Assembly: GCA_000091205.1 (NCBI GenBank)
Contig: AP006496.2
Direction: 5' to 3' (one strand)
Source: Cyanidioschyzon merolae
Lineage: Eukaryota
DNA: 64,000 bases
In this document: positions 1-57,730 of the stretch, piece by piece
Numbering within the stretch: position 1 is the first letter of the stretch
Layout of the letters: every line of letters begins with the position of its first letter
Program-made: the position numbers and the translations under genes
The notes under the pieces: generated by a model
Seen by the model: only the letters and a program-made list of their open reading frames with translations
Databases searched by the model: none
What the model was told of the DNA's origin: nothing

Positions 1-1529
1 GAACACTTGCCGTCTTTGCCACTGTACTCTCGTCATCGTCCTGTTGGGCAAACACTGTTCCTGACCCATTTCCCCTCCTCTGCTTCTTTATTTGATCTTC
101 TCCGTTCGGCTTTAGTCGACAAGAGGATTTTTTCGTTCTTTTCCGGCAGTCGGCGATGTCGGGCCTCGAAAATCCTCGGCGTCCATGTCCATACCTTCTC
201 CTTCGGTTTCTTATTTCTTCAAATCAACGCACTTGCTTATGCCCTTAGATGAAGACATTCCCTGCGGGAGAAGGGCTTGCGGACGGCAGACATGGTATGC
301 CCCACTGTGTCGCCGTGTGCTGAACGCTTCAGCGATTCGCCCAGTGCAGCGATTATTGCGTTTCACGATAGAAAACACTCCTTCGATGGCATTGAAGCAC
401 GTAGAGCACCGAGGAAGGAAAAGCAGCTCTATCCCTATAGAACCGGCAAAATCCCGAACGCAAGGGGAATGGTGAAATGTCACCTGACTTCAGGGAGAAG
501 CCTTCAGTGATTTGGCAAAGCGAGTGTGATTGTGTGAGCCTTCTCTACGAGAAAGACTGCGGCCGCCAAAAGAATCCGCTGCATCTAGAATCGATGATGA
601 TTTCCGAGTTATCTTCGAGTTCGATCGGATATTCAACGGGCTCGCTGCTCCTGGACTATCCGAGCACGCTCCGACCGTATCATCCAAAGGAAGTCGCATC
701 GATTGAAGAAACAAACCGACGTCTCTCTGCTGCATATCGATACTACCTATCCAGGCACGTTGTTGTAGTTACGATTTCGGTGGAAGATGGCCGTGCGTGG
801 AACTGGACCCCATTTTTGCGACTGTATCCCAGTATTTTTAGGACAACAGGAACAAGCTATCGAGAAACAGAGACGCCCATGGTGGCTACTTTAGTCGCTT
901 TCGCTTTCAGTAAAGTCATCGACGAGTCATTTTCTACCATTGGCGGCAAGCACGCAATAAGAATACCCGTTTTTGGCGCGGAGCGCATATGCTTCTTTCT
1001 TTCCGTGTTCCTATATCATCTCTGTATTGTTGCATGACTGATCTGAAGGAGAAAAGTAGTCCTCCTTGAGCTGTTCAGTGCAGAATATATCCTACATGCA
1101 ATTCGTCTAGGATATATACAGTACATTCCAGCATGATTTCGATCCCATCCTATACATCGCAGCTGGGTTGGAGCGTAAATGAGTTGAGACACTTTAGGAG
1201 GCAGTACTGACGCGCGCTTCGGTCCCTGCACTTCCCTATTTATCTAGGCTTGTTCCAGATATACAGCCTCGACACTCAACGTGCACCAGTGAGAACTTAC
1301 GGATGCGTACTTATTTTCATGATTCTCCGGCATAGTTTCGGAGTCACTTTTTCGAGGCCTTACTGCTAGAACGCTTTGCGACGCCCTCGAACAAAGATGC
1401 GTGAATTAAGCGATATCGTTAATCAGTAGGTACTTACCAGATTGTACCCCCTTCTTTCCTTACGTGTAGCACCCTCAGATGACGCATGCTCCAAGTTCAC
1501 AGTCGTTCTATTGTAAGGCAACTCGTTGG

Positions 1530-2660
1530 CGCAACAATGCGCGCTGCTGAATTGAAGAGGAGGAGAAATTCTCCACTTCGTCCATGGTCGAGCTCATTGC
1601 ATGCATATGCTTAGAGTTCACTGAAATATTCGTGTGAAATAATGAATCCCGTTTGAGACGCAAATCCTTTCCTCATTGCAACCATAGACAAAACGGCATT
1701 CCACAATAGCGCGACGCCTCTCAACGGATATGTTCTCGGATGCTTCCGTTTCTTTTCTTTGCGTGGTAAAGGGTTCTGGACTCCGGCTTGAGTCATCGTA
1801 GCGATCGCTATTCGTGCAGAGTGCGTTTCCGCTGTATTCGAAATGTGCGTAGGGAGGAGTCGACGTTTCTTGACTTGATCTCGAGTCTAGATTTTCCTCA
1901 TGGTACGTTTTTCACCATGGACAGCATCGCGTCCCATAAACTCTCTTCTGTTCGAAAAACAGCAGAGAACGGAGGGTGAGTCATCATATTCAACCCCATT
2001 TATTCTGCATCTATCAAACCGATAGAGGACGTCATCGGGGCCGTGAAATGAAGCAGATGGAGAGATTTCGAATGGGACAACTGCACCTAGTTATGCTGCG
2101 GACGGATTACCCGGCGAGGGGATCGTCCAGAAGAAGCCCACGATCGAAGAGCACGACACCAGGCGTGAATACCAAGGGGCTCATCGCGAGGAGCCCTCTT
2201 TACCCGCCGAGGGCCTGTACCAAGCGATGAAGCAAGCATTCACGCGTCACGTGACGGTCCTCAGAGGAGGAGAAGGTCCAAATGATATATAGGAACACCT
2301 TAGCAGGTTCAAGGGCGCCCGTACGCGGGACGCACCGAGCCTGCACACAGAGAAGATGAAAATAGGAAGCGAAACGAAGATCGCATCTTGGGCCAGTCCA
2401 TTTCATCGTTCGACAGCAACTCGGAATCTAGAAATCAGATCTTGAACGCTGCCACCGATACCCTTCGACTGCTGACAACGCTGCTGGAGGGAAAGGAAAG
2501 ACCGGCGTATTTAAAGCCAAAGGTCAGCGAAGCGGAAAGGAGGCTGTCGCAGAATTATCCCCCAACGACTAATGTTCGTGGCAATGGGAAGAGACCCAAA
2601 ATTTAGTTTCTACACCCGAGTCAGCTGACTGGACCGGTTCCACTTTATTCTGAAATAGGT
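1530..2660 (+). mobile_element. Miniature, internally deleted TnpB/Fanzor-like derivative (family 2, copy a)
   Basis: 5-prime block caacaatgcgcgctgctgaattgaag, shared with the other family-2 copies. Mid block ...gacaaaacggcattccacaatagc. 3-prime remnant RNQILNAATDTLRLL (degenerate D-x-NAA-x-NIL RuvC-III motif) at about 2430. Conserved tail ...gtggcaatgggaagagacccaaaatttag...tacacccgagtcag...ttattctgaaatagg ending at about 2655. Confidence 0.6.
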
Positions 2661-2859
2661 GTGAAGCGATGCTCACTTTGGATGAAGTTTAAGGAAACTG
2701 ACCGCTCGTTGCGTCGGGGCGATGGATCTTTGTCGACGCCTTCCACGACCGAAAAACCAACCAAGCCCACAACCACTGCTTCAATGAATAGCGCAACGAA
2801 CGCTCTGCAATCAGCAATTCAAAGAACACCACACCTCATCCGTCACTACATAGAGAAAC

Positions 2860-5695: not shown

Positions 5696-5900
5696 GCTTG
5701 CCGATGGTCGACACATGAATCCTGCATTGCTTGTATCTGTTAAAGTACCCGAGGCGAGGAACAAGCCCTGGCGACGCGTCTGTGTCTGGGCTTGCGGATG
5801 GTCGACACGTGAATCATGCATTGCTTGTACCTGTTGAAGTACCCGAGGCGAGGAACAAGCCCTGGCGACGCATTTGTGTCTAGGTTTGAGCCGCGTAATG
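5631..5900. repeat. Tandem repeat, about 93-bp unit x about 2.9 copies
   Basis: Units begin at about 5631, 5725 and 5817 (cattgcttatacctgttgaggtacccgaagcgaggaacaagccctggcgacgcgtctgtgtctaggcttgccgatggtcgacacatgaatc...). They are about 90 percent identical. The first unit contains the asparaginase stop codon. Confidence 0.85.
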
Positions 5901-7880: not shown

Positions 7881-10659
7881 TGGAATCTGGAGGGAAACAG
7901 CTTGCTCTGCCGTGCTTGGTGCCCACAGAAGTTCCGCATGGAACAGAACTGCCGTGCCGATACATCGATTGCGAGCGACGCTTTGAGGGATTATGTGCGG
8001 TTTTATGGTGTAATGTCGATGCATCGAAACAAGCATATCCAAAAGTCCTGTTCAAGGGCTGGAAGCATCAGACTCCAGCAGCGAGGTCGCTACAGCAGCA
8101 ACGAGCGTTATCTCTTTGGCAATATCGCAGAGAGAGCAGGGTGTTACCTAGTATGTTCTCCTCAGCAAAAGGTGTGGCCAACTGTTGCTGGGCTCTATAT
8201 AATGCCCTGAGCACATGGTGAACTCGCGTCTCGCCACAGGAGGCACTTTCTTGAATGTCTTGGTTTTCGTATGACACGTTAAGGCTGGCAAGTTTCGCTG
8301 TAGTACATCAACTTTCGACCCCCTTTAGTCTCCACGCGAGCGTTCCGAGTCCACCATAGGGAGCTACGATGCGAATAGGTCGTACGACTCCTGTCCAATG
8401 CTGTAGGATGGAGGGACCTCTGTTAGAACGCCGCCGAAGACTCCCATACGACCTCTTAACAAGGGACGTTGACAGCACCGTGGTTGGAGCGCGACGACTG
8501 TCAGAGCACCAACGGTGTTCTTCATTGAGAAGTTGCAGAACAAGTTCAGCACCGCAGTATTCACAGAGAGTGCTCGACGAGCTCTGTCAAGGACGCTTCT
8601 CCACTCGGAACTGATGCACTGGGCTGGCCGCCGCTAGCACGGTCCGAGCGGCACGGGCATCTGTGCAAGCCGCTCGATCCAACAATCCTACACTACAAAA
8701 CATGCAATCTGTACGCTTACGTCATCCGTAGAAGGCACCAGACCGCGCCTTGAAATGCTGTCCTATGTGGTGACTCACTCGCACATTTTGCCAGCAACAA
8801 GGCGGCTCCGATGCATGTAGTGAATCCGCTCAATGAGGACACTTCGATGGTGTTCGCTGGCCCTTGTATGCAGGTAAGCGTGCAGCTCGAAATGGAAGCC
8901 TTTCCCTGCCGGTCTGTGAACATGATAGCTCAATGCATACGCCATCGATTTCAGGAGGATATTGCAAATCGGCTACAGGAACGGCATCGCGAACCCAAGG
9001 AGCAACAGGCGGGTCAGTATGACCGGAAACAGCAGCGCACGTCCATGGCCCTCCTCCCGGGAGCGCTGGACTGTTTAGAGGTGGGATTTTCGCCTCGCGT
9101 TTATTCTGCCGTGGGTCTTTCCAATAGTTGTGCCGCTATCTTGTCTTTACCGCGCAGTATAGAGCGAAACTATGCGCGCCCGGCAGGGTTACTATACAGG
9201 TTGGGTCGTTCGCACTCACCTGGGTATGCGTTGCCTACACAAAGTACGGAGCGCATCCACGAGTGTCTCCGAAGCGGGTGCCGCAGTTCGTTTTTTTCGA
9301 ACGGCATTGCAAGTATCCTGTGCTTCATCCGATCGAAAGCACCATCCGCGAACACCTTGTGATACTGGTCTCTATCACTCAACCGATCAGTTCCATACGG
9401 AAGCGCTGTATAAAAATCAGCGCGAACAGCGTCTGGGGTTCAAAGTCGTTAAAGGGTCGGCCCCTCTCAAAAATTCACTGAATGACTGCAGCTCAATGAA
9501 TCTGACTGAGTTTTCAGTTGCCTACGACCAGAGCGCAAGCAGGTCTTTCACAGTGACGAGCGTGCTGTTTCCAAAACCATCAAGGATCATCTTGTGGATT
9601 CTTTCTTCCCCGGGAGGCCGTCGAGCGGAAACTGTGGAGCGTTGCTTTAGCGATGCGTGGGTATTCCCAAAGGAACACGTACCACCATACCAGAATAAGC
9701 ACTGATGTGATTATCGCTGAGTATGGACGGAATGGTAACAGGCACCAAGAAAATGTGATGCAAGCTTCACCAAAAAGCAAAATAGTCCACGGCTGGCACC
9801 AGGGAGGTTTCAGTGCTCGGTAAACTTGCAGAGCATCCTGAGCAGCTGCACGAACTGTGCGACGCCGGAGCGGAGGTTCACGTAGCTGCAAATGTAGGTG
9901 GGTAGAGCCCCGTGACTTGCCACGGCACCTCAGAGACAGCCGCTTTACAGGACATCTCAGCCGTTTTAGGCGGGCACAAGCCTTTGGAACATATGAGGTT
10001 CGGTGAGCCGCACAGTCTGCAACAGCGAACCCGAAAAACAGCGTCCACGGCATGCTTTCACAGCGCACTATCTGGCTGCCTTCCGGAGCGAATGGAAGCC
10101 CTGAGTACTCAATTCGAGTACTGTTCCCACTTCTGTTCCCAGCTTGTCTGACAAAGCCAAGAACGCCTCCTGTAACGCATTCAACGAGCAAGGTAAATGC
10201 TCCAACGCTTCGGAGCGAGGCAGGACGTGCTCCTCAAACGCTTTTTTTCACCTAAAGCTAGTGGAGCTCGTCGAGTGAAATTATGCTCTACAGCGGCAGC
10301 GTCTACGCCGCTGTAAACCTTAAAATAAACCGACCTCTGTGGTTAACAGGTTTCGCTTACGTAAAGATGCACAGGCAAGCGCAGCGTCCCGAAGCAAAAA
10401 CGTTCCAGAACTCTAATATATGCTCAGCAGTTGTTGGTATCGGATGGATCCTGCCGTAGTGCAAGCAGTCCGCACTTTGGGATTCTTTGATCGCGGCCTC
10501 AGTGTCCGAAGTGACGCTGGACCGAATCTTTTCTCTTCAAGCAGCACATAATCGAGTAGTGAACATGTTCCATAGCTAGTCTGTCTGCAGCCGCGCTGTC
10601 TGCATTCGACACGACTCGGGCAGAAAGCCTCTACACCTATGTCAGAGTACAACAGAACA

Positions 10660-11700
10660 AGCCCACTCATCTATCTCGGGTGTCTACACTAGAATATGGG
10701 TCTTCCGACCGCCATCAACATTAGCCTCTGCAGTTTTTTTCTGTGACAGCTTCCTTTTCCATTCTTGTCTCCGGCTTCAAACGCACAGGTCTTTCGCTTC
10801 TCTACAGCTCGGTTCACAGCAGCCGAAGGATGTTTACGGCAATGTGCAAGTCCCGATTTCGCCGTTTCAGGTCGCTGTCTAGGCCTTTCATCAACAGACC
10901 GAAGTTGCTAACTACACATTGCTTGTCACTTTGATCTTCTTCGTATACTACCTTGGTGTGCACTTTTCTGTGGCGACGCGTGGCTGTCGTCAGGTGTTCC
11001 CATTTGTCCACCATAGCTTCTCATCCAAGGGCCGCTCTGTAGCACGTGAACGCCTGCTCGATGTCTCGGTACATGCCGTTGTGAGGTACACAGAGATCGA
11101 CACGATGCATTTCTCCGTTTCCGCGCATGGTACCGCACTTAACGATACAAGGCTTCTTCTGTACGATCCTTCAGCGAGGGACTTGTGCGCTACACATGCG
11201 GAAGCGCACGCAGTGCCATTCTGTTGAGGTTTCGTGGAACGCGATGTTGTCTATGGCGAAACACGGACCGTAACGAAAATCCAGGCTAGAGAAGGAGTCG
11301 AGGACCTTCGATCTGTGTACACTCCTTTCGTGCAAAGCGGTGAAGCGTTCTCCACTATAATTGATCGCTGCGACAACTCAAGTCCGAGTCCAAGCCCCTT
11401 TTTCATGCAAACAGAAGAGAAAGGGGCCCCTGGGAGCATATCCCGTAAGTGCTATCATGCTGTTGATGTCGAATGCCGTTTCTTCGATGGCTACATGGAA
11501 AGTAGGATACGTCTTTCGAAGGAAGTCGATTATTTGGCATGAGAAATTTAGTGAACGGTCCGCATTAGCTTGTGAACAAGTTGTCAAGGGACAACGTCGA
11601 GTTCGTTTCATCGTCAATCCAGCGACCCGCATTGCTGCGCTTTCAGTCTGCTTTGAAACAGAAATAGAACGGTTTGAGAATCCGTAATTTGAACATGCTT
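10660..11700 (-). mobile_element. Miniature TnpB/Fanzor-like derivative (family 2, copy b)
   Basis: On the minus strand: 5-prime block gcaatgcgggtcgctggattgacgatg. Mid block FHVAIEETAFD (track ORF 11378..11632). 3-prime remnant KRRNRDLHIAVNILRLL (track ORF 10814..11014). Conserved tail ctaatgttgatggcggtcggaagacccatattctag...agacacccgagatag. Confidence 0.6.
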
Positions 11701-12105
11701 CGCGTAAGAACAGGGAAAGAGTGTAGGCTCATGCGTATGAGTTTGATATGATATCGTTCATGTTTACGAATCCTTCTTCAAGGGCATCGCAACGTATCTT
11801 ATTTCCGGTGACGTAAAGAATTCAAGCGGCAGAGCCTCGGAGCCGTTCCAGAAGGACGACCGAGAATCCTGAAACTACGTTTGCATCCGTAAACCCTTAT
11901 TGATGCTCTTCAATTATAGAGGCTTTTGCATCTACGAAAAGTTTGAGAAAAATCGAAAGAGAACAATAAAGCGTGCCGTTCTTTATTCCATCTCAATTTA
12001 ACCGAAGTCCAGTGGCTGCGGGCTTGCAAGTAGCGTCGTGCGTTTGTCCAGCCTCGGTTACGCTGTTCGTCGCTGCAGTGCGTTTGGTTGGTGAGTGTTT
12101 TTTCC

Positions 12106-16629: not shown

Positions 16630-17089
16630 AGCTGGACGGCAGCAACGAGGCTTTTCAAAAAGATGCCGGTGGCGGCGCTCGTTCCGCTGCTGCGCAATGG
16701 CTTGGCGGCAGTGGCGGCTATACTCGTGTCAGATGAAAATAGAATACGAAAATACTTGCTTTGTTCTTAACTTTCGATTTTTCTTCCGGACTTTCTAGAT
16801 CCACAGACTCGGCATACGAATCACAGCAATAGGGGCTTCCGGATAAACATCTGCTTTTAGAAGTCTGGTTCTTCTTCCCGGAGTGGCTCATTCGACTCTT
16901 TGGCGCTGGAACTCGTTACATTACCGGAATCAAACTGATTCGCGACGCCCTCTAAAAAGGGTTTCTAAATAACCGATATCATGATCGAATTTTTACGTAA
17001 AAAACTCCACGCTTCTCGATTCTTTAGGAATGGCGTGCTCAAATCAGACTTTACTCAAGTTTTCCGCTTTCTGTATCAAGGAAACTTGA

Positions 17090-19215
17090 TGGTGCAGCGA
17101 TGCGCGCTGCTGGATAGGTCAGGAAACGTAATCGGCATCGTCACTCGACGATTTCTTCGCAAGCTCCTGCAGAAAGTTCATCGAAATCCTCATATCAAGC
17201 AACGGATTCCGTTCGCACGACGAAGCCTCCTCGTATCGTTGTTCGCAACGAAACGGCATTTGTCAGCAGCCTGATACCCCTCACGTGATATGCTCCCTGA
17301 GGTTGCGCTTTCTTTTGTCTGCACAGAAAAGCACCACAGACTCGTGCCTAAGTCATTCTAGCGACGGCCCCCAGTACAAAGTGTTTCACCGCTTTGCCAA
17401 GGGAGCATAGACTGATAGAAATCCTCGACTTCTTCGCCGGGGAGGTCTATGAGCGGAAAAGTACGCATTGCGACTCTGAACCATCTCAGCGTCATCTCTC
17501 TCGGCGCGTGATTGAGTCGTTGACGTAAAAGTGAATGCACGAGGACGTAGTCATCAGCCTGGACGACGTGAAGGTTCTCTCTGTGACAGGTGCTTCTTCG
17601 CAGATCATAGGCTCGTCGGATGAAAAGACAGTGAGAAGCCTCAGTCGAGTACCTCCCAAAGGAGACGATGGCGAGAAGATGATGGATCTGGCGCCTTCGA
17701 GTAACCCGCCAACGAGAGCGATTCTACACTTTCGCATCTGAATTGATGCTCCGCAGCTCCCGTAGGGGAGAGATCTTCTCCAGTTTTGAACGCACTTACG
17801 GGTCGCTGCTACGACAACCTCGATTCGCGACTTTTTCGCTTCATTGTGGAGATGAATGCCTGTGCAAAGGCGGCGTAGATGCGTTCGAGGCTCTAAAAGT
17901 AGCGTGGAAGAAGAATAGTAGCTGATTGATAGCATGGAGTTCATGAAGCGGATCGCGTACACGTCGTCCAAAGATTCGGCGGAACTCTTGAGTCGCTGCA
18001 GGAAAGCCAAGCGACGGAAGGCAGAGAAAACTGCGAATGGGAAGAGAAGGGGACGAACGAGACGGCCTCGGTGCGACGAAGAGGCGCGGTGTCCTTCCTC
18101 GAGATTGATGGTGTGGGAGTAGGCATCATGATCAATAGCGAACGTCTTGCAACCGTCCGACCTGAGACGAGCCCCTGATCCCAAGAGGAATCACGCCGTG
18201 GAGCAAGGAGGTATACAGAAGTGTGGCCTCGCGAACTTGGCCTCCATAGCGATTTGCATCGGTCTGGACCCAGAGAGAGCGAACCTCCACACCTGTGCTT
18301 TCATGAGTTTCGAAGAAAAACCCGATTCACCTGGGATAATCGACGACTTACTGGAAGCTCGAATTCCGTCCTATTCGTGTTTCAACTACAATCTTAGGTC
18401 CTAAGCGTGTGCCTAGCATCTTCGTCTCAGCAAACGGGAGCAAACTAGAAAATAGTTCGACCAGCAGGCAAGTGATACGGAAGGGCGTCACAGGCTCCTT
18501 AGCCGCAATGTCGCAATTGAGTGGACCATGTGGAAACTGTGCCCATGACTGTATATATTTCTTCAATGACCGTTACCCTGGTAGGCACGTTTTGTGGGGA
18601 GGGCACTCAGGAACCAAACAGCATGCAGGGACGCCGACTGTGAGCTATTGAATGGACCAGCGTGTGCTTGCACCTGCTGCGGACGGAGTGCTCTAGGATG
18701 GGACCTTTCAAAAGAAGTACCTGATCGTAGAGTACGGTTGTGGGCACGAAACTGGCAGAGGGCATCGAAGAAAGCCCTTTGTAGCCATGAGGAACGCGTC
18801 TCGAGCGGTGAAACAAGCGCTCATGCATTACAGGACGGCTCGCAGCGATGGAGCTGTTGTGTAGAGGTGTGAAAAACTGGCCACAGCCAATTTTCAACGC
18901 CGCCAAGGCCACAACTATGCTATTTACAAATATGATGGAAATGACAAGCGGAGCGGAAATTGCAGCTTCCTTCTGTGCATGAAGTACGTCGAAAACAAGC
19001 GCAAGCAGCGAAATCCTGACCTTCATATTGCTATGAGCATCCTCCAACTGCTCATAACCGAGCTGCAGGGCAGCGAGAGACCGCCATATTTGACGTTCGC
19101 AGAAGAGCGAGAGGAAAAGGAATCTTTCGCTAAAATGTCCCGTAAATGCTCTTGTCAATGACAATAGGAAGAGATCCAAACTTAAGAGTGGACGGCTATG
19201 CTCTGAGATCTGTCC
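17090..19215 (+). mobile_element. TnpB/Fanzor-like derivative (family 2, copy c), longer, with two tandem 3-prime (RuvC-III) segments
   Basis: 5-prime gcgatgcgcgctgctggataggtcagg, encoding QRCALLDRSGNVIGIV. This resembles RuvC-I DPGNTNIITIA of family 1. Mid block aaacggcatttgtcagcagc. A first RuvC-III-like stretch PIFNAAKA at about 18890, a second RNPDLHIAMSILQLL at about 19010. Tail tgtcaatgacaataggaagagatccaaacttaag. Confidence 0.5.
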
Positions 19216-19328
19216 CATTTTATTCGAACGTGGGTGTGGGCTTTGAAAACGGCGCTGGCAACAGTGCTACCGGGAGAAGCATCTGCCGCGCTAAGTAAGA
19301 GCTTTTGGCGGGTTCACTTGAGGCCGGC

Positions 19329-23159: not shown

Positions 23160-26100
23160 GCTCCGCGGGCCGCGTGCTTTCCGTACTGGAGCCAGTGCCT
23201 CCTAAGAAGATCGCACTAGTTGATCGAACCCTCGGAAGCGCACATGCTATCTAGGGAAGCATCGGTCCATCTTATAAAGCCTAGAATCAAAGCCTTCTCT
23301 GCGAGTCATGCATGCAGACGAATTTGAAAATTTCAGCCAAATCCAATTGGTGCGCGAGACGCAACGCGAAAGGCTAACATCGCTAATTCGACCAAAACTT
23401 TGAAAATGAAATCCTGACAGGGGCGCTTCATAGGGTAGACGGAGAGCCGCCGGTGCCTGCCACAAACTGTACGGGGATTCCAGTCTCATTCTGCGCGTTT
23501 TTCATAATCTCGCCACGAGCATTCCGTTTTCCACTAGCTCCTGGCTGGCGGGGCACCAGAATGCAGGTTACCCACCGCGCGTTACCATATTCCAGTAACT
23601 GCTCGCTCAGATATTGTAGTGTGTGGCTGTTCGTCAAGCAGTCGCAGGCCAAATGCCCCCTGGTCACGTTCCTTCACTGCTCAGTATGTGAACGATAGCG
23701 CGTATGGTTCGAGTCGAGAATATTCATGCGATCCTGCGTGGCGCGTTGCAACACTACTTTCGGGTCAGGCTGACATTGTTTAATAACATGCACGCTCTGT
23801 TTCTGCCTTTCGATTGCTTTTCCAAATTTTTTCAGATACTTAGGCTCGGCATTCGAATTGCCGTCATAGGGCTTATGGATTCAGGTTTCGTTTTAGGATT
23901 CTTCGTCGTCTTTTCAGTGCGGCTCCTTCGGAGATTTGCGAATGGAGCTTGCGTTTTCATAGGAATCAAGATGATTCGCGACGAATCCGAATTGCAGTTC
24001 GTAAAAAACCGACACGATCTCCAATTGATACCAACATGTCTCCATTGTTCTCCTGCCCTTACGTGTAGCATGGGCAAGTCAGGCATTCTTCTCGTTTTCG
24101 ATGTTTCTGTTTCACGGCAAATTGTGGGCGCAACGATTCGCACCGGCGGAGTGGCGAGGAAAAATACTTGACGTCTTCCCTTGACTAATGGTACACAGGC
24201 TCATGCCAAAGGTTCACTGAACTTGTAACGTCAAACATTTGACTCTCTTCGAGAGACAAATCCATCTCTCGAAGTGACCGCGAAGATGCAGTATTCCAGC
24301 GCAGCAAATTACATTCACGGGATACGATCCCATAGGCTCCTGTCTCATTTGTTTGAATCGGTAAGGGTCTTGGACTGGGCTTGAGTCATCTTAGCGATTG
24401 GCTCCAGTGGAGAGTGCGTAACCATTTTGCGCGAAGGAAGCGGGATTGGATCGAAGCATGTCGACTTGATCTCCAGCCTTTTTGATCCTTCCAGTTCGAG
24501 TTGCGTCATGCCCAACATCGCATCCGACAAATCCTCATTGGAACGGAAAGGCGTGCACTTGGGCGTGCAGCAGTCAGAGTGCTCGCAAAGTGGACGAGAA
24601 AGAATCCCGTGCTCGTAGGGTACGGTACTAGTTGCGGAAAGAGAGGGAGGCATCGAAGTGGACATCCTGTACTCGTCAAGGGCATGCACCGAAAGTCGAC
24701 GTAGACGCTCACACTCCACTAAGCGACACTCGGAGGCGGATTCGTGGTGAAACAGTGGAGAATCCTGACCACAGCCATGTTTCACCTGTTCGGAAGGTGC
24801 AACAATGCTGGATTCAAATACGATGAATGTGCCAAGCGAAGCGGGGACCGTAGCTTGCACATGTGATAAAAATGAGGCGAAAACAGCTGGAAAATCTATA
24901 TCGTTGCCTGAGCGCAAGTGTGGAAACACTTCGACTGCTCGTAACAGAGCTCGGGAAAAAGGAAAGCATTGCGAATTTAAAGCCTGAGATGAGAATGAGA
25001 GAAAATGGAAGCAGCCGCAGGAATGGTTCCCAACAAAGCTGACTTTGATGACAGTGGGAAGATATCCATACTTTATTGTGTGAGTCTTCTAAGTATAAAA
25101 GACTGGTTCGATTGTATTCTGGTATAGGTGTTGTACTGCTGCGCGGTCGGGCGTGGCGTGCAGAAATCGAATTTCGCTTGCTGTTCCGGAATCCGCGATT
25201 GGCGAAATAACTCAGGACGAATTTCGATTTCTTGAAATTCAATTTTGACGCATGCCGCGCGACCGCGAAACCGGCCTCCGCTTAGTCGGGCAGTGGTTCG
25301 ATCCGCGTGTCGCGGCTTCGGATGTCTAGTTGCCCGTGTACGGCGCCCTCGCTCCAACACTGATGCAGCCCGGTGCTTGTAAATGGTTGCGCAGTCCTTC
25401 GAATGCATCCGTGCCACTGCCCGGAATCCGCTTAGCGCATGGGTGCTAGTTTGCAATCTGGTATCGGTGTGTCAACGCAGGTCGCAGCGCTGGAATTGGT
25501 AGTTTTGCGCCTGCTTCTGTACATGCAGATGTCCTTAACGAGTAGAGCGAACTCTTGTTTCAGAAGTTCTACTTTCTAAAGGCGAATGCCTTGCGCGGAT
25601 CGGCGCTCCCAAACTTAAATCTCCGTCCTAAATTCCCTGGAAAACTCATATTTTCAAGTAAAGAGTTTCCCGTATAGAGATTTCATGTAATATGCCACGC
25701 GTCGTGTGGGTTGAAGGTACGGCGACTATCCCCATTGTTGCTCGATGAGCTGCGCTTCGGTTTCCTTCTATCTGTTATACTAAGATTCAGTATGTTTCAT
25801 GCTCCAAGGGCGCAGCGGACTCCGAGGAACGCAGTTGGAGCGTTGGAGAGTAGAGATCGAGCTCTTCGTGTCATGGGGGCCGTATGAGTCGCGGGTTTCA
25901 CATGCACGGCGCTCGCTGTACTGCGTAGTAGCTGCACCTTACCAACCAACGCATTAATCGGTCGAATTCGGGGGCAGCGGGATGCTTTATGGTTGGGAAT
26001 CGATGAGACTAAGCAGAGATTTCGTGGAAACGCGTTTGTAAACTGAGCCCAGGGAAGCAACCACCTGAGCACCTCGCCAAATACTCAACGTTCCACTGTT

Positions 26101-41142: not shown

Positions 41143-41699
41143 CCTGGACGTAGCCTGAGCCTCGAACCCAAGCTCTGTGGCCTTTGTTCCTATGCTCGTC
41201 CGTTTGCAGGCTGTCTCGAATGCGACGACCGCTTATACGCAGCGCAGCGGGAGCTGGACTGTATTGATATGTAGGAATATGTACTTATGCGAATACTTCA
41301 TGACAAGAGTAAAAGAAGTTGGACACAAGCAATGCGCATCGACGGCTTGCGAGCGATGTACTCGACCCTCGTTCACAAAAAATGCAGCACTGAACTGCTC
41401 GCTCTGATCATGTATTTCGAAATTTTCCATAATTTTTTGGATGAGCAGCCTCAAACTTCGCAGCAGATCAATAGGGACGTACTGACTCAAACGCGGATTG
41501 AGGAAACTCACCCGTCTTTTCAATGTGGCCTCTTCGATCACTTGCCACTGAATTTCGTTACGTCACGGGAATTAAGATGATTCGAATTACCCCAAAAAAG
41601 GTCCCTGTAATAAAGGATAGCATTACCCGTTTCATACGCACAAGCCTCCACTCCTCGCCTTTTTACGTATAGATGCTCAAATCACGTGTTGTTTTAATT

Positions 41700-42700
41700 T
41701 GCGACTTTTTCATCGCAACTCGTGTGCGCTGCCACTCGAGCCGCAGTATTGGCGACACAAAACAGTGAACGCTGTCCCTTGACGTCTTCAGCACATGCTC
41801 ATGCCGAAAGTTCTCTGAAATTTTCATGTCAAGTAATTGATTACTTTCGAGAAACACTTACTCCTCACTTCGTGGCTCTCGACAAAACGGCATTCGACAG
41901 CAGCATACTACTTCAAATGGGATCTGCTTCCACAAGATTCTGCGTCTTCCTACTACAAGGAATATGGTCATAGACGGTGCTTGCAGTCATTGCGGCAATC
42001 CCTTGCACTGAAGAGCTCGCCACCGCATCAGTAGAAGAGGATTAGACGAGTCGAAATTTCCCGACTTGATATCGAATCTGTATTGTGCTTCCGTTGTTAT
42101 TTTTACTATGGAAAACATCGCGTCCGAAAAGTAGTCTGTTGAATGTAACAGTGTGCACCTGTGTGAGCAGGGGACAGAGTAGTTGTCGAAGGGATCGCGC
42201 AGAAGCAGCTCGTCCTTGTAGGGTGCGGCACTGGTGGCTGAAACGGAGGAGGTCATAGAGGGATGTCCCCTGTACACGTCAAGGGCGTATACTGACATGA
42301 AGTAAACGTTCATGCGCCACCGGTCGACGCTCGGAAGATGAGATCTGGTGAACATATGTGTACAACTCACCACAGCAATGCATCAGCGCTGCGAAGGGTG
42401 CGTCATAGCTGTATCCATAGAAGATGAAAATGGCAAGAAATGCATAGATTCTTACTTCCGCATGTACGTGAATTGTGCCGGCAATATCGGACAGCGATTA
42501 AACCAGGACCTGAACGCTGGCATCAACCTCCTTTAAGCACTGACAACGGAGCTCGAGGGTAAGGATAGGCCGGCATTTTTGAATCCAGATACAAGAGAGA
42601 GGAAAATGAAGCAGACTCAGAAAAAGCACGAATGGTTTGTGTTGATGGCAAAGGGAAGAAAACAAAACATTAGAATGCACGCCTGAGCTACCTAGGAAGG
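41700..42700 (+). mobile_element. Miniature TnpB/Fanzor-like derivative (family 2, copy d)
   Basis: Mid block SLKFSCQVIDYFRETLTPHFVALDKTAFD (track ORF 41722..41973), about 75 percent identical in nucleotides to copy b. 3-prime VIAVSIEDENGKKCIDSYFRMYVNCAGNIGQRLNQDLNAGINLL (track ORF 42348..42536; the RuvC-III motif DLNAGINLL is preceded by Cys residues). Tail ctgacaacggagctcgagggtaaggataggccggca...tgttgatggcaaagggaagaaaacaaaacattagaatg...cacgcctgagctacctagg. Confidence 0.6.
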
Positions 42701-44280
42701 AATGTTCCCGCTTCGTGTGTCATGGTTGTATTCGTCGCTCATTTGCGTTGCAGTTGGAGTTCAAGACGCCCACGGTGCGCCTTGTTGCTGCCAAAATGAG
42801 TTGAACCGCGAGCCACTGACCTAAACAATAGACCTGGGAATGCAATGGCGAGCGCTGGACTTCTGGGTGTGCCGCTCGACTGGAGCGCTTGGGGCATGCG
42901 CCACGCAAGCGCGCATCATCGACGGGGCGGCACTTTGTTCACTGGGTATTAGAAGTGTTGCAGCTTTCCGCTATAGGTCCGGTGAGGAAGCCACGACGCC
43001 CTTAAACGTTGAAGTGCAGTCCAAGAGGCGGAGATGTGAGCACAGGTGCTAGCGTGTTCAGAAGAAACTGGGCCCCGGCGCTAACCTTCCGGGACGCGGT
43101 AGACGTCCATCGCGACGAGCATCCGATCCGCATGGACTCGACCAAGACAACATATAGCGCAGCGGTCTGAAAAACGCGTTCTGGATCCCCATGCACTGTA
43201 ATGCCGTGTGAGAATCTCGGGCGAACCGATGTCTCTACTTGTGAATCAGAATATATGCGCCCTTAGATTGGTACTGGGGTTGCAATTCGTCGGCAGAAAG
43301 TGACGCTTTCGCCCCAGAGATGCACTGCAACCAATAATGCGACTCTAGTGGAGTCGCTTTTTCTCTGCATGACGACTGCAGCAGCGGCGGAGAATCCAAT
43401 GTTGCAGCAAGCGCCCGCTATTGGCTAGGTACAAGGAGAGTTGACGGATGAATCGAAGCGCGTTCCGCCGACCGCCTTTGAATGATGGATAGCTATCTAG
43501 TGTATGAGCAGTACAGAAGGATATGGGAAGCAGCAGCCTGGAAAAGTACTTTATCGAACAATGGTTCGTTGAACGCTGGTACCCGTCCGGCGATGCGTAG
43601 GATACCGCATGACTGAATCGCCGAAAGAATATATGTTGTTGTCATTCTCCTCCCTTTTCTTTGTGAACTGCGGGTTCGTCCGTCTTGGAGAATCCCACAC
43701 ACAGGTCAAGCATTTCTCCAGACTCAAGTCTCTTTCGGCGAAACAAATACGAGTGCTGTCTATGTTAGGAGTTCGCGTTTCAGTGCGATATCAAAAATGT
43801 TCTAGTCAAGTGGCGACGATTTGACACAGAAACCTGCTTTATTCTTTCTCCATACGTGTCTCCTCAATACCTTTCATGTCAAGGGCATGAAACTTCAAAT
43901 CCTCTGACTAGATTGATAGTACTTGCGAGAGAACACATGCGGTTGAATGAATTTACGAATTGGCAATCTTGTGTGCAGTGTGCGATGAGCTCTACTCGGG
44001 ATGAAAGCCCTTCAGGATAGGGACCCTGAGATGCGCAGCTCATCCACCTGCTGCCCACAGAATGACTGACTTAAAGAGGTGAGGCAGTTTTTCGCAAGAT
44101 AGCGATGGCTGCATATAGTCCTTCCAGGATCTTCCTCCAATCTATAGGAAACATTCCCTTTGTTGGACACAGGCGAGAAACACAGATAAAAGAAAAAGGG
44201 TCTGATCATACACGCATACCGGAACTCATTCGTCTAGATACACCAATGCAAGCACCAGAGAACGCCATCTACTTCTTCTA

Positions 44281-45576
44281 TCATTCGGCTTTGCGCACTT
44301 CGTCGGCCAATGAAGGCTTCGGTTCCGCCGTTTGAACTGACCACGGGACACGGCCCGGTACCTGGTCTTCAACAGAATCGTCCACACCGTCGTTCGCATG
44401 GGCATCGCTTGCGCTTAATATATCTGTACGGCTCTGCACCTGGGATTCGACAAGGTTCGGTAACTCTCCACCGCGGACTGCCTCTCGTCTCTTGGGTGCA
44501 ACGCTCGAAACCGGTCGCTCTGGCAACGATGGACCGATTCGAGGGCGCAAACCCGCCACAGCACCTCCGTCGGGGCGGCTTCTGCCAAACCCCACAGTTA
44601 GCGAATCCTCAGCTCGAGCGCTTGGCGTATCTTCCACCGAGAGCGTCCCGGGTGCATCGGTCGCATGCCATGCAGAGCCGCTGGCTCTATCTGTCTCGAG
44701 CTGCCACGGCGTCTCTATCTCAAGCGAAACTTGATCATTGTCGAATGGAGCTGTTGTGTCATGTTGCCGCAGCCAGTGCTCAATCTCGTCGCGACGAATA
44801 CTCTGTTGGAGGATTTTCATTGCCCTCTCCGTAAGCAGACCCGCACCAGTGCGCCCTGGCCCGGCCATGGGAGCGTCTTCATTCGCGGCAAGTTCCGGCG
44901 ACGACGCTCCGTCCGCAAGTTCGCCAGACTCCGCGGCCGTACTTGAGTAGTTTGGGCTGCTGCCAACGAGCTCCAGGGACTGCTTCGCATCCTGGAGAAT
45001 GAAGCGAATCTCGTTCGCCATAGCAGAGCGTGGGCCAAGAGCAAGCAGGTCCTCCAGGCAGTACGTGCCGGTGCGCTGGGCTCCATAGTAAGCCCCTATC
45101 AAGGTGCCACACGTCACGAGGACGCCTCTCCTCCAGGCGGGGGCTCGATCCGCTCTAGTCACTCTGGAAGCAGCGCTGTGCGGAAGTGTTTGTGATCCCT
45201 CAGGATGCGGTCCGGCATCGGCAGCAGGGCCGCTGCTCGGAGACCCACCGGTTTCGCCGAATCCCGACCTGCCTAGCGAGTCAGGCGCGACAGACCCAGA
45301 GGATCTACTCTGCCAACCCCCGCCGTTTCTGCCAAGTGGACTCTGGCGCCATAGGTTAAACCGCAGGAGGCCAAGAGCGCCCCAGCTTGTGCTCAACGGC
45401 CGCGAAAGGAAAAGCCACGCTATTACGGCCGCTGCTCCTCCTCCGAAAAAGGCGCTTCGTAGCGCTTTCGAGCGACACTTTTCCAAGGTCTCACGCTCCT
45501 CTGGACTGGGAGAATACTTGTTCCTGATTATTCGCGCCTGCAGCTCAGCGTAAACCAGCTGCTCGACGGCGCCCAT
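44281..45576 (-). CDS. Hypothetical low-complexity (Ser/Pro/Ala/Gly-rich) protein with one predicted TM segment
   Basis: Long ORF. The first ATG is at 45576 (the track ORF starts with TTG at 45591). One hydrophobic segment, AFFGGGAAAVIAWLFL. The antisense strand also carries a 174-aa ORF, so the coding strand is uncertain. Confidence 0.3.
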   Translation of the reverse strand: MGAVEQLVYAELQARIIRNKYSPSPEERETLEKCRSKALRSAFFGGGAAAVIAWLFLSRPLSTSWGALGLLRFNLWRQSPLGRNGGGWQSRSSGSVAPDSLGRSGFGETGGSPSSGPAADAGPHPEGSQTLPHSAASRVTRADRAPAWRRGVLVTCGTLIGAYYGAQRTGTYCLEDLLALGPRSAMANEIRFILQDAKQSLELVGSSPNYSSTAAESGELADGASSPELAANEDAPMAGPGRTGAGLLTERAMKILQQSIRRDEIEHWLRQHDTTAPFDNDQVSLEIETPWQLETDRASGSAWHATDAPGTLSVEDTPSARAEDSLTVGFGRSRPDGGAVAGLRPRIGPSLPERPVSSVAPKRREAVRGGELPNLVESQVQSRTDILSASDAHANDGVDDSVEDQVPGRVPWSVQTAEPKPSLADEVRKAE

Positions 45577-46639
45577 ACAAGCTGTCGACAACTCACGATA
45601 GCAGCGACACGATACTCCTCTGCGCCAGCGTCAGGTATAAAAATGGAACGCTGTATTTCCGTTACGTTTATGCATGTCGCGTTTTCCGTGCATTTTTAGA
45701 TACATAGCCTTGGCATTGGAAACGCAGGTATATGTGCTTACAGATTCATACGAAGTTCTAGGATTCTCGGTTGTGTTCTCAGAGTGGCCCCTTCGACACT
45801 GCAGCTGGAATTCGATTCGTCACCCTGGTTCAAGATGATTCACGATAGCATCGAACAAGGGTTCATAAAATAACCGATGTATTATATGATGCTTTTGTGT
45901 AGGCTTCAACTCTTCTCCTTTGCTTATGTGCAGCACGCACAGATAACAACTTCTGCAAGCTTTTTACCTTTTCGTTTGAAGGGAGCACGTTGATGCAGCC
46001 ACTCCTGCCAATAGATTGACGAGGAAACCTATGAATTGACCTAGTCCCTTGACGATATTTTCACGAGATCATCCCGAACGTTCAATGCATTCATCACGCC
46101 AAAAAAATTGATTCCTTTCAAAACACGGATGCTCCGATCTGTATCGTCACCTGTGATTTTTGGAATTCGACATTTGCTTGATTCCAGTCTGGGGATATGA
46201 TCCCAAACGCTCCCTGTCTCTTCTGGTTGAGTGGATAAGAGTGTTGGACTTTGACTTGATTCACAGCAGTGATTGCTTTCCGAGGCGAGTGCGTCACCGT
46301 CTCTCATATCGGTAGCGTCGACGAACCGAAAATTCTCGAGTTGTTCTCAAGCCCTGGTTTTCCATCATGTACTCGTTCAGTAATCGACAATATCGCATTC
46401 CACAAATCCACTATCGACAAGAACAGCGGACGTTTCCGCGTTCAGCATACAGATTGGTCGCCAAGGGGATCCTTTTGAAGAAACCCGTGAGCGCAGGATG
46501 CGACACCGATAGCGGAAACGGTGGAAGGAATCGAGGGTAGTCTGCTAAAGCCTTCGACGCCATATATTTGACGATGAAGCAAGCGTTCGCTCGCCACAGT
46601 GCGAAGCTTGGAGCAGGATCTTTGGTGAATACATATGGG

Positions 46640-47010
46640 AACACCTGTCGACCGTCAACTGTCAACGCTGCGAACAGCTAACCGGGGGATGCATCCAATG
46701 AAGATGCAATTGGAGAGTGAAGCGCATATCGCAATTTCCGCCTGCGCAGGAAATATACCGACAACAGCTGGAAACAACTCCATTGGGAATTTAAGGCTGC
46801 CATGAACATGCTTTCAGTGCAGAAAATGGAGCTGGAGGTGAAGCAGAGGACGGTGTATTTAGAGCCTTGAATAAGGAAGAAGAAAAGGAATCAGTCGCAG
46901 ACAAGGCCCATAGATACTTTCGTTGATGACAATGGGAGGAGGCCCAAACTTTAGAATGTATGCCCGAGTGAGCGTAATGGGGTGCTTCGAATTAATTCTG
47001 AAATAGGCAT
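46640..47010 (+). mobile_element. 3-prime terminal fragment of a TnpB/Fanzor-like element (family 2, copy e)
   Basis: Tail cgttgatgacaatgggaggaggcccaaactttagaatgtatgcccgagtgagcg...ttaattctgaaataggcatc, homologous to the tails of copies a, b and d. Degenerate NAA-like stretches at about 46665 and about 46775. Confidence 0.5.
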
Positions 47011-47175
47011 CTAGGGCCGTCCTTTCCATGAGATCAAATCGATGATGGACCGAACGAGCGACACAAAATGGGATCCACTTCGGTGCCTGTGTTCTCCGAG
47101 AGAGCGTGATCGGTAGCCTCCTGAGGTCCATTTCAACGCTCTCATTTCCATGCAGCATGATCCAGCCGCATCACA

Positions 47176-47310
47176 GGGATCCCCTAAAGCGCGTTGGTGT
47201 TCATGACATTTTATCGATGGACCTACCTGGGATCCCCTGCACTGCGCATTGATGTTCATGACATTTTAGCGATGGACCTCCCTGGGATCCCCTGCAGTGC
47301 GCTTTCGATG
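47176..47310. repeat. Tandem repeat, about 55-bp unit x about 2.4
   Basis: gggatcccctgcactgcgcattgatgttcatgacattttagcgatggacctccct is repeated; it starts about 165 bp after the copy-e terminus. Confidence 0.8.
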
Positions 47311-57339: not shown

Positions 57340-57730
57340 ATCCATAAAGCGTAACTACAGAGCACTTAGCATCTGTTGCACGAGTAGGAAACTGGATGGA
57401 ATGCTCCACTCCAACCTGCGGCGATGCAGCACAGCAGATCCAGATACAATATTTGCAGGACATTTCGCGTCAAGTGCACAGGTAGGAAACTGAAAAGAGT
57501 GCTCCGCTCCAACCTGCGGCGATACAGCACATCAGATACAGGTAGAGTCTTTGCAAGACATTTCGCGTCAGTTGCACAGTTAGGAACCTGACAAGAGCAC
57601 TCCACTCCAGCGAACCGCAATGCAACACAGCAGATCCAAATAAGTCTTTGCTGGACATTTCGCGTCAAGTACACAGATAGGAACCTGAGAAGAGCGCTAC
57701 GCTCCAGCGTGCTGCACCGCAGCCCGAGCT
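57340..57730. repeat. Tandem repeat, about 96-bp unit x about 4
   Basis: The unit (gacatttcgcgtcaagtgcacaggtaggaaactgaaaagagtgctccgctccaacctgcggcgatacagcacatcagatacaggtagagtctttgcaa) recurs four times at 80-90 percent identity. It lies between the convergent Maf and 57925-59115 genes. Confidence 0.85.

Follow-up and report, generated by a model that had tools for sequence, protein, structure and literature searches.

The locus of copy d

The DNA analysed here (the window) is a 64 kb stretch of nuclear DNA from Cyanidioschyzon merolae 10D, which contains six short copies, a to f, of an element that we call family 2, and two long Fanzor copies. Of eight window ORFs compared by exact sequence, six are identical to proteins of strain 10D encoded on a contig of 852,727 bp. 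One of the short copies, copy d (41366..42728, + strand), is a decayed IS630/Tc1-like transposon that has undergone an internal deletion and retains a Fanzor1 tail, and its 5′ end lies about 220 nt from the ATG of eIF2-alpha. An nhmmer search gave bounds of 41314-42735 for this copy. These were refined with the terminal repeats and with the copies from metagenomes, which start at HMM positions 47-62 and end at 1399-1416, so that the element extends beyond 41700-42700, where an initial annotation, made from the sequence alone, had placed it. To call it a miniature element, as was done there, is overstated. Copy d is 1.36 kb long, the family-2 elements in general measure 1.36-1.43 kb, and nearly all of this can be recognised as relics of transposase or Fanzor coding sequence. 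As MITEs we count short elements (typically under ~800 bp) without a coding remnant, and such an identity was rejected for family 2 on its length as well as on its coding relics.

The relic of a 5′ terminal inverted repeat, CCCTCGTTCACAAAAAATGCAGCAC (41366..41390, +), can be aligned to the 5′ ends of three other copies, b, c and f, as well as to the 3′ ends once these are reverse-complemented, and is homologous to the 28-nt terminal inverted repeat (TIR) of the intact metagenome element L011 (TACAACCGTGAAAATTAAAATGGAACAC). Its 3′ counterpart, GAATGTTCCCGCTTCGTGTGTCATGGTTG (42700..42728, +), was located by the terminal-repeat alignment and is followed by TA at 42729-42730. Family-2 terminal repeats are imperfect, 17-28 nt long and found at both ends, with the core TCAGAATAAAATGGAAC; they are common to the TIRs of L011 and of a second intact element, L012, and are strongly eroded in copy d. 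On the 5′ side copies b and d are flanked by GA and copies c and f by TA. The exact 5′ terminus is soft, and in some copies weak similarity is seen about 50 nt further out. Orthologues of this window, sought among the fetched loci in order to date the insertion of copy d, were not found.

Transposase relic and deletion junction

In the family-2 element the 5′ 60% is what is left of a DDE transposase of the IS630/Tc1-mariner type. In copy d it includes the relic of a helix-turn-helix region (LRSLATEFRYVTGIKMIRITPKKVPVIKDSITRFIRTSLHSSPFYV*MLKSRVV...; 41532..41711, +), recognised by weak matches of the consensus to the Pfam profiles HTH_33, HTH_Tnp_Tc3_2 and HTH_32. The relic of the DDE catalytic core, with internal stops and frame changes, follows at 41716..42131 (+). 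For this part the consensus matches Pfam DDE_3 (PF13358) with an E-value of 8.3e-7 over profile positions 2-102 of 146, and tblastn of the consensus DDE region against the metagenome loci supports the same assignment. The first catalytic Asp is kept in copy d (VALDKTAFD, 41872-41898), the second is now a Glu (TMEN, 42105-42116) and the third motif is deleted; KPIED is kept only by copy a, and the D-D-E/D triad of copy d is therefore incomplete.

At 42132..42178 (+), as the comparison with intact L011 reveals, transposase sequence ending just after MDN..HKSS adjoins Fanzor sequence (QRALARAADR...). In L011 the same two points are ~2 kb apart. Copy a possesses 96 additional nt of transposase at the junction (1978-2068), which hold the third DDE motif (KPIEDVIGAVK). 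The deletion variants seen thus comprise the family-2 form, copy a with its 96 nt, and the metagenome elements L002 and L013 with other breakpoints. In L002 and L004, which are deletion derivatives as well, the Fanzor part starts within ~17 aa of the family-2 breakpoint; we treat this near agreement as either coincidence or shared descent. A search for transposase homologues in one protein index returned no NCBI protein of C. merolae among its matches, so that, within the limits of this index, strain 10D has no known annotated transposase that is intact.

The Fanzor1 tail and the 62-aa ORF

The C-terminal relic of a Fanzor1 protein occupies 42179..42626 (+) in two frames and was delimited by tblastn with the metagenome proteins P0068, P0075, P0071 and P0067 and with the L011 Fanzor. 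Stops lie at 42239, 42303, 42339 and 42534 and the frame shifts at least once, near 42282-42292; the relic is therefore not an uninterrupted ORF. Its longest open stretch is a 62-aa ORF with a GTG start (42348..42536, +), which reads MNICVQLTTAMHQRCEGCVIAVSIEDENGKKCIDSYFRMYVNCAGNIGQRLNQDLNAGINLL and ends with NQDLNAGINLL, exactly as the initial annotation had quoted it. When searched against the whole 64 kb window, P0068, from an unrelated metagenome contig, matches 42282-42596 (E 1e-13), P0075 matches 42306-42623 (E 7e-7) and the intact L011 Fanzor matches 42432-42581 (E 2e-5). Because proteins of unrelated metagenome contigs match at 42282-42623, the resemblance of the ORF to TnpB is not due to chance.

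The annotation had recognised here a TnpB C-terminal layout consisting of an acidic E, a cluster of cysteines and the D-x-NAG-x-NLL motif. This holds as a statement on ancestry, as the family-2 consensus passes the Pfam profile PF07282 (E 3.5e-8, 33.9 bits, cut-off 26.3), but not as one on function, since copy d itself is decayed. The E in question, that of IEDEN, is not the catalytic Glu. The catalytic position is the Q of VQLTT (42360..42374, +), which in copy d replaces the WEHLTT of the consensus and the relatives, and therefore the RuvC-II Glu is now a Gln. In the zinc-ribbon (TNB) relic (42384..42476, +) the ancestral KCHRC...LCMKC has become MHQRC...MYVNC. Of the four ancestral zinc cysteines only two, those of QRC and VNC, are kept; the other two are lost and the remaining cysteines of the ORF are new. 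In the RuvC-III motif, NQDLNAGINLL (42501..42533, +; ancestral NRDLNAAINIL), the Asp is kept, R is changed to Q and A to G; N-R-D-x-N-x-A is invariant in alignment A2.

The conserved tail noted behind the ORF (42537..42699, +) begins with what remains of the Fanzor C-terminus (ALTTELEGKDRPAFLNPDT...), after which come ~70 nt that do not code for protein; it is real, because homology continues beyond the stop codon of the ORF. The RuvC-I Asp (DPG-type) and the WED/REC half were sought in copy d, in all six window copies and in both consensuses and are absent from each of them, the N-terminal Fanzor side of the element being occupied by transposase sequence. A Pfam search with the 62-aa ORF of copy d alone gave no match to the TnpB family, PF07282 included. 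Copy d is a pseudogene which has lost catalytic and zinc-binding residues, and neither DNA cutting nor guide-RNA binding nor transposition can be expected from it or from its ORF.

Copies and decay of family 2

The six short copies are ~1.4 kb each and 56-62% identical in pairs. Besides copy d they comprise copies a (1187..2667, +), b (10626..12056, -), c (16684..19241, +), e (45568..47017, +) and f (23721..25135, +), the last of which had been overlooked when five short derivatives were counted. In addition, a stray transposase fragment is present at 283-486 (-). Copy c is composed of 16684-17440 and 18645-19241, separated by a unique 1.2 kb insertion (17441-18644). This insertion was considered as the missing middle of the element and rejected, as the tblastn extension is unconvincing and the insertion matches nothing else.

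The proposed copies could be aligned consistently, and copy d shows 73% identity and 16 indel columns to the six-copy consensus. Both this consensus and one made from 15 copies restore the HTH and DDE_3 regions and a continuous Fanzor C-terminus of ~185 aa, with the RuvC-II Glu in WEHLTT, all four cysteines (CxxC...CxxC) and NRDLNAAINIL. The C-terminal module of TnpB/Fanzor is thereby restored, but the consensus does not reconstitute a short TnpB, as it has neither WED/REC nor the RuvC-I Asp.

The same short architecture was found at nine further distinct loci on C. merolae-like contigs. Pairwise identity among the 15 distinct loci is 54-62%, and the same locus is 98-99% identical across samples. 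Divergence is uniform and star-like, with ~0.6 substitutions per site between any two copies, compared with 1-2% between strains. Because of this star-like divergence, family 2 goes back to a single old burst of multiplication, and every copy has drifted neutrally since. A codon-periodicity test on the six-copy alignment gave no clear third-position signal, and therefore there is no ongoing selection. Among the 15 copies the number of stops per copy in the ancestral open frame is 2.9 on the sense versus 2.3 on the antisense strand for the Fanzor part, and 1.9 versus 1.8 for the DDE part.

Intact relatives in metagenomes

A full parent of family 2 is present in metagenome contigs as an element of ~3.6 kb with inverted repeats of ~28 nt, TA flanks and two intact genes. 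Both L011 and L012 encode an intact transposase of 326 aa and, downstream, an intact Fanzor1 of 780 aa. The L011 transposase matches DDE_3 (E 4e-28), HTH_33 (E 1e-6) and the NCBIfam IS630 model (E 7e-43), the latter scoring best. The TIRs of L011 and L012 are 28 nt long and 79% complementary, and they contain the core common to family 2 (...AAAATGGAAC). All six 3′ ends of the L011 type end with ...GGTG directly followed by TA, and TA also precedes the 5′ end of L011. In a search for a guide-RNA structure, an RNAalifold prediction for six 3′ regions of the intact type gave a folding term of -37 kcal/mol and a covariation term of -0.5 with three compensatory pairs, the sequences being very similar to each other.

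The independent homologues P0067-P0081 include members with the RuvC-I motif GLDPGRVNLY. A profile of these proteins reached the solved Fanzor1 structures 9cf0 (E 6e-4) and, weakly, 8gkh; phmmer with the L011 Fanzor against the PDB sequences gave no match, so the Fanzor1 structures are reached by the family profile only. In total, the Fanzor profile has 1213 relatives, mostly of 600-850 aa.

Several AT-rich relatives come from brine metagenomes. Between the C-terminal modules of two AT-rich relatives, L002 and L003, dN/dS is 0.08. A selected mini-Fanzor was considered for these modules and rejected: L002 is internally deleted, its Fanzor start (MPSKRS...) adjoining a complete transposase end, and L003 ends at the end of its contig and may be a full-length gene, in which case the ratio may reflect selection on an intact protein. 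Nothing about truncated forms can therefore be read from this value.

Origin of copy d

We are rather confident that copy d is the inert fossil of an internally deleted, non-autonomous transposon composed of transposase and Fanzor1 sequence, which multiplied in one old burst and then decayed neutrally. The parent is an element of ~3.6 kb with TIRs and TA flanks, carrying the gene for a 326-aa IS630/Tc1-mariner-type DDE transposase and, downstream of it, that for a 780-aa Fanzor1 homologue. An internal deletion, starting directly behind the second catalytic Asp of the transposase, took out everything up to the C-terminal ~185 aa of the Fanzor. Internal deletions in DNA transposons usually arise when the gap repair that follows excision is interrupted, and judging from this general behaviour the deletion in family 2 may have arisen in the same way. 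Since both ends were kept, the ~1.4 kb derivative could have been mobilised in trans by the transposase of full-length elements. A single old burst followed and then neutral drift of all copies, with the Fanzor piece as a passenger that never had the RuvC-I Asp.

A more active role of this piece is conceivable but unlikely. The guide RNA of TnpB and Fanzor is encoded by the 3′ end of the ORF together with the sequence up to the right end of the element. Having kept its ends, the 3′ end of the Fanzor gene and the sequence from the stop to the right end, the derivative might have out-multiplied its parent as a parasite that supplied only guide RNA. Such non-autonomous guide RNAs could have recruited Fanzor in trans, for example for re-cutting emptied donor sites, which would favour the retention of the derivative. 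Today's copies are too decayed to show guide-RNA parasitism.

It is improbable, too, that the relic has taken on a regulatory role for neighbouring genes such as eIF2-alpha, as a promoter, an insulator or a non-coding RNA. The genome is very compact, all six copies are intergenic and mostly on the promoter side of genes, the spacer between DNA polymerase delta and an OTU gene is filled entirely by copy c, and the copies have been retained at high divergence with few indels. However, conservation is no higher in any one segment of the element than elsewhere, the divergence being uniform and star-like, and in a gene-dense genome nearly any insertion that survives is intergenic, so the position alone is no evidence.

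It is very hard to believe that the 62-aa ORF, at this length or slightly extended, yields a functional miniature protein of the TnpB/Fanzor type or a zinc-finger peptide. The ORF exists, it retains D-x-N-A-G-x-N and several cysteines, and the dN/dS between L002 and L003 could be quoted in its favour, were L003 not cut off at the end of its contig. But four in-frame stops and a change of frame interrupt the 450-nt relic of copy d, which in addition has lost the Glu and half the zinc cysteines, never had a RuvC-I Asp and matches no TnpB-family profile of Pfam. Codon periodicity is missing and stops are gained at the rate of the non-coding antisense strand. The GenBank protein accessions are consecutive across the gap that holds copy d, which suggests that no gene is annotated there.

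Hardly any weight can be given to a real gene on the opposite strand. Copies d, f and c, three of the six, keep ORFs of 128-203 aa there (41987..42373, 24345..24929 and 18607..19218, respectively, all -), and in the 15-copy consensus the minus strand has an open frame of ~250 codons. Over the Fanzor part, however, the codons of this frame are complementary to, and in register with, those of the sense frame, and where coding DNA is GC-rich a frame of this kind is commonly open. Moreover, the antisense frame gains stops about as often as the sense frame, and the antisense strand of L011 is broken into pieces of 83-139 aa.

Finally, copy d was supposed to belong to one set with the long copies (37094-39172 and 59501-61609). 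Both kinds end in the motif N-x-D-x-N-A-x-x-N-I with an (E/K)RP tail behind it, and the Fanzor of L011 is a distant homologue (E 3e-7, ~25% protein identity) of CMe-1, but a derivation of copy d from the long copies is refuted because there is no nucleotide similarity between short and long copies of the window, neither by BLASTN nor by nhmmer. The long copies represent CMe-1A, with 57-68% identity to the published Fanzor1 CMe-1, which matches only these two in the window by tblastn. CMe-1 is without the CxxC pairs of the family-2 consensus, and no TnpB-family match was found by Pfam for the ORF of the long copies.

Relation to known elements

For C. merolae one Fanzor1 family is given by Bao & Jurka (2013, PMC3627910), and CMe-1A is reported there to be without TIRs, with no transposase described. 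Family 2 resides in the same genome and is also old (CMe-1A is ~80% identical to its own consensus), but it differs from CMe-1A by its TIRs and DDE transposase as well as by its nucleotide and Fanzor protein sequences. Fanzor1 genes are known from Mariner/Tc1 transposons, namely PGv-1, PUl-1 and PUl-4 (Bao & Jurka 2013, PMC3627910), and Fanzor1c is associated with this transposon group (Jiang et al. 2023, PMC10530073). The family-2 parent resembles these elements in its TIRs, its TA flanks, its IS630/Tc1-mariner DDE transposase and its separate downstream Fanzor1 ORF. Unlike them, its transposase fits best to the IS630 model, its Fanzor1 lineage is missing from what the 2013 paper gives for C. 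merolae, and the window copies, heavily decayed, consist of two-thirds of the transposase fused to the C-terminal quarter of the Fanzor.

With prokaryotic TnpB from IS200/IS605 and IS607 elements the ancestral tail shares the RuvC-II Glu, the C4 zinc ribbon (PF07282) and the RuvC-III Asp in RD-NAA-NI. In contrast to these, family 2 resides in a eukaryote and has no TnpA (Y1 or serine recombinase), it is most closely related to Fanzor1 proteins of 600-850 aa, and the entire N-terminal half is missing from the window copies. Ds, which is derived from Ac, deleted P elements and deleted mariner copies are all non-autonomous transposons with internal deletions. As in these, the ends of family 2 are kept, the middle is lost, a transposase made elsewhere would be required and one parent has many variants, but the deletion in family 2 spans two genes and leaves a nuclease tail that resembles a mini-ORF bearing motifs.

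What looked like a tiny TnpB is thus accounted for by a Fanzor1 gene whose broken tail lies inside a dead, internally deleted IS630/Tc1-like transposon, and its apparent link to the long copies is removed. C. merolae is usually described as nearly transposon-free. Family 2 represents a second old Fanzor1-associated family in this alga beside the published CMe-1A, and its six copies fill much of the intergenic DNA of the 64 kb. With ~0.6 substitutions per site between copies versus 1-2% between strains, they provide a dated set of markers for the evolution of the Cyanidioschyzon genome. The intact parent, known from metagenome contigs, is a candidate for an active Mariner-type Fanzor element, and a thermo-acidophilic red alga carries its decayed derivatives.

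Family-2 copies in the window

The ORF at 42348..42536 (+) is present and reads exactly as quoted in the initial annotation, with the end ...YVNCAGNIGQRLNQDLNAGINLL. It lies in copy d, which is an ordinary transposon fossil. Diverged matches to the copy-d region were found by BLASTN at five other places of the window, and iterated nhmmer searches delimited six copies of an element of ~1.4 kb (family 2): copy a (1187-2667), copy b (10626-12056, (-) strand), copy c (16684-17440 plus 18645-19241), copy f (23721-25135), copy d (41314-42735) and copy e (45568-47017). The initial annotation had counted only five short copies, and its span of 41700-42700 for copy d was too short, as this copy reaches well left of 41700. 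The proposed kinship of the copies stands, because a consistent alignment was obtained. All six can be aligned over their whole length with few indels, at a pairwise identity of only 56-62%; copy d shares 73% identity with the majority consensus.

The copies sit in promoter-side intergenic DNA (16630-19304; 41143-41365; 45568-45591). Copy c takes up the whole divergent spacer between the genes for DNA polymerase delta and an OTU-domain protein, copy d begins ~220 nt upstream of the eIF2-alpha ATG, and copy e abuts the start of the ORF 44281-45591. Copy c is split at 17441-18644 by a unique 1.2 kb insertion without a match elsewhere in the window or in 63 retrieved loci. A seventh, isolated relic at 283-486 (-) comprises only the C-terminal part of an IS630-like transposase, around PPYSPWFNPIE, and is matched in tblastn by residues 223-287 of the transposase from the metagenome locus L011 (E 8e-7).

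A Fanzor tail joined to a transposase

One reading frame of the six-copy consensus translates to ...GAVVDIWEHLTTAKCHRCEG...FRLCMKCVDNNWKHRNRDLNAAMNILRLLTTELEGKERPAYL, and a consensus of 15 copies contains a continuous ORF of ~185 aa (MEQRALARAADRVLAEG...PVIVGYGTGRGNGGGHRGEPSVPVKGMYRAMKQAF...WEHLTTAKCHRCEG...LCMKC...RNRDLNAAINIL...ERPAYL...). This Fanzor part passes the Pfam profile PF07282 (Cas12f1-like TNB, formerly OrfB_Zn_ribbon; E 3.5e-8, 33.9 bits against a cut-off of 26.3) and has the RuvC-II Glu, a C4 zinc ribbon and the RuvC-III Asp. Upstream of it there is neither a RuvC-I Asp nor a WED/REC region. What the consensus restores is therefore a C-terminal TnpB/Fanzor module, and the initial idea of a short TnpB is wrong.

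The 5' 60% of the element is read in another frame (...LFGVAPSRLCRWN...PLIVAIDETAFDSSMIPLTGYAPRGS...SVDESKFLDLISSLDFPSGTCFAMDNIASHKSS) and scores above the Pfam cut-off for DDE_3 (E 8.3e-7, 29.4 bits, cut-off 28.6, profile positions 2-102 of 146); Pfam matches to HTH domains are weak. The 5' part is an IS630/Tc1-mariner-type transposase that is truncated after the second catalytic Asp.

Relatives in metagenomes

A search of 5.8 billion proteins with the Fanzor part of the consensus, continued with the top hit, retrieved metagenome proteins only, and no NCBI C. merolae protein was among the homologues found in the Fanzor and transposase searches. Some relatives are C-terminal pieces, while P0075, P0077 and P0080 add IETDGVGVSI and the RuvC-I motif G(I/L)DPGRVNLY. 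A profile of the relatives matches solved Fanzor 1 structures, that of Parasitella parasitica (9cf0) with E 6e-4 and that of Spizellomyces punctatus (8gkh) weakly. In a set of 1.84 billion cluster representatives it detects 1213 relatives, most of them 600-850 aa long and matched in the C-terminal half; the lineage therefore belongs to Fanzor1. In tblastn, external metagenome proteins match all six window copies, including copy d at 42282-42596 (E 1e-13) and 42306-42623 (E 7e-7). Together with the PF07282 match of the consensus, this confirms the TnpB/Fanzor ancestry first proposed for copy d.

AT-rich relatives of the transposase-Fanzor pair occur in L002 (1-1114, GC 0.33) and in L017, L021, L031 and L050 from brine metagenomes. 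With some of these relatives coming from brine samples, the lineage extends beyond the Cyanidiophyceae. Between the Fanzor C-termini of L002 and L003 dN/dS is 0.08.

The parent element and its deletion derivatives

A scan of metagenome contigs gave 53 loci; a tandem arrangement of the transposase with a complete Fanzor was seen in L011/L012 and L015/L016. The L011 element (24-3633 of metagenome contig Ga0209937_1004465; also in L012) has two intact ORFs, encoding a 326-aa transposase (103-1083; DDE_3 E 4e-28, HTH_33 E 1e-6, NCBIfam IS630 E 7e-43) and a 780-aa Fanzor1 (1209-3551), and is bracketed by a TA-flanked, imperfect 28-nt inverted repeat (TACAACCGTGAAAATTAAAATGGAACAC / ...GTGTTCCATTT...GGTGTA). 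In six out of six L011-type elements TA comes immediately after the terminal ...GGTG, and beyond it the sequences differ; the same terminal core is present in the family-2 ends (TCAGAATAAAATGGAAC ... ATAGGTG, then T). L011/L012 is an apparently intact autonomous element and a candidate active Mariner-type Fanzor element.

In the short architecture the transposase runs up to MDN..HKSS and is joined directly to the Fanzor sequence QRALARAADR.... This arrangement was also found at nine further distinct loci, on contigs of GC 0.50-0.56; housekeeping proteins on one of them, L001, cluster at >=90% with C. merolae 10D proteins of another chromosome. Copy a alone retains an extra 96 nt (1978-2068) with the third DDE motif (VIIFNPIYSASIKPIEDVIGAVK) and is an earlier or separate deletion variant. 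L002 combines an entire transposase end with the beginning of Fanzor (MPSKRS...), from where it jumps to NDERYKKKMV.... L013 shows the tandem order of L011 with the DDE core mostly deleted: a single 991-aa ORF (2811-5786) fuses the HTH region of the transposase to an entire Fanzor1, so that L013, too, is an in-frame deletion variant of this two-gene parent.

DNA transposons such as Ac/Ds, P and mariner normally leave a spectrum of internal deletions of one parent, and the various breakpoints of family 2, copy a, L002 and L013 fit with such deletions of one two-gene parent. The short form probably arose from this parent by interrupted gap repair, and would have been moved in trans by the transposase of full-length copies, via the shared inverted repeats, and inserted at TA. 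The Fanzor fragment was probably a passenger without activity. As to a guide RNA in the 3' tail, six closely similar tails of the intact type show almost no covariation (RNAalifold).

Decay of the family and of copy d

No clear codon periodicity was seen in the mismatch rates among the copies. The 15 distinct loci are about equidistant (54-62% identity), while a single locus is 98-99% identical in different metagenomes, which points to one ancient burst and a long period of neutral decay since then. We also considered an antisense gene, as the consensus has an open antisense frame of 250 codons and three window copies have antisense ORFs of 128-203 aa. This was rejected: antisense and sense frames carry 2.3 versus 2.9 stops per copy in the Fanzor part and 1.8 versus 1.9 in the DDE part. 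Since stops were gained equally fast, the open antisense frame is a by-product of coding composition.

Copy d retains relics of the 5' repeat (41366-41390), the HTH (41532-41711) and the DDE region (41716-42131), where VALDKTAFD still holds the first Asp and Glu has replaced the second (TMEN). The deletion junction (about 42132-42178) is followed by the Fanzor relic (42179-42626), which is spread over two frames and interrupted by stops at 42239, 42303, 42339 and 42534. Next come the tail (42537-42699) and the 3' repeat relic (42700-42728), with TA after it at 42729-42730. RuvC-II reads VQLTT in place of the consensus WEHLTT and thus lacks the catalytic Glu; the zinc ribbon, KCHRC...LCMKC in the consensus, now reads MHQRC...MYVNC and has lost two of its four zinc ligands; in RuvC-III NRDLNAA reads NQDLNAG. 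The acidic residue initially taken for the TnpB Glu (IEDEN) falls in a variable insert between the zinc-ribbon halves, and of the cysteine pair read in CEGC one is ancestral and the other new.

The long copies and published Fanzor elements

Two long copies, at 37150-39270 and 59521-61622, share 71.6% DNA identity with each other. They had been regarded as kin of the short ones, but BLASTN and nhmmer found no nucleotide similarity between the two groups in the window. The CMe-1 protein matches both (37094-39172 and 59501-61609, (+) strand) with 57-68% amino acid identity, with frameshifts and stops, and the long copies are therefore pseudogenes of the known CMe-1A. Unlike the family-2 lineage, CMe-1 is without CxxC pairs, and it shares only 25% identity with the Fanzor of L011.

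Fanzor1 and Fanzor2 were described by Bao and Jurka in 2013, who showed capture of Fanzor1 by Mariner and other transposons and listed for C. merolae one family, CMe-1A, a 3.2 kb element without TIRs of which about 150 copies exist, each sharing ~80% identity with the consensus (PMC3627910). Autonomous Mariner/Tc1-Fanzor associations, mainly of Fanzor1c, were reported by Jiang et al. in 2023 (PMC10530073). In C. merolae, family 2 represents a second Fanzor1 lineage, separate from CMe-1A, and the only form of it observed here is a dead derivative with an internal deletion. We found no paper describing it in the literature, Repbase being outside the scope of this search.

C. merolae-like metagenome contigs with family-2 copies also bear CMe-1A-like copies (L001 258-1626; L046 and L049 11-1890), which are about 70-74% identical to the long copies of the window. 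The two old families thus occur together in more than one strain.

Genomic setting

Long unbroken ORFs for DNA polymerase delta, eIF2-alpha, a Rieske protein, a proteasome subunit and others mark the window as eukaryotic. As six out of eight ORFs are identical to C. merolae 10D proteins (BAM81295-BAM81312; exact-sequence match), it is nuclear DNA of C. merolae, a red alga. It also contains four tandem repeats, all in or beside intergenic DNA: one at 7467-7880 (82-nt unit x5, 98% matches, 41-nt sub-period), and others at 5605-5888, 57377-57706 and 47189-47310 (in this order 94-nt x3, 89%; 98-nt x3.4, 80%; 55-nt x2.2).
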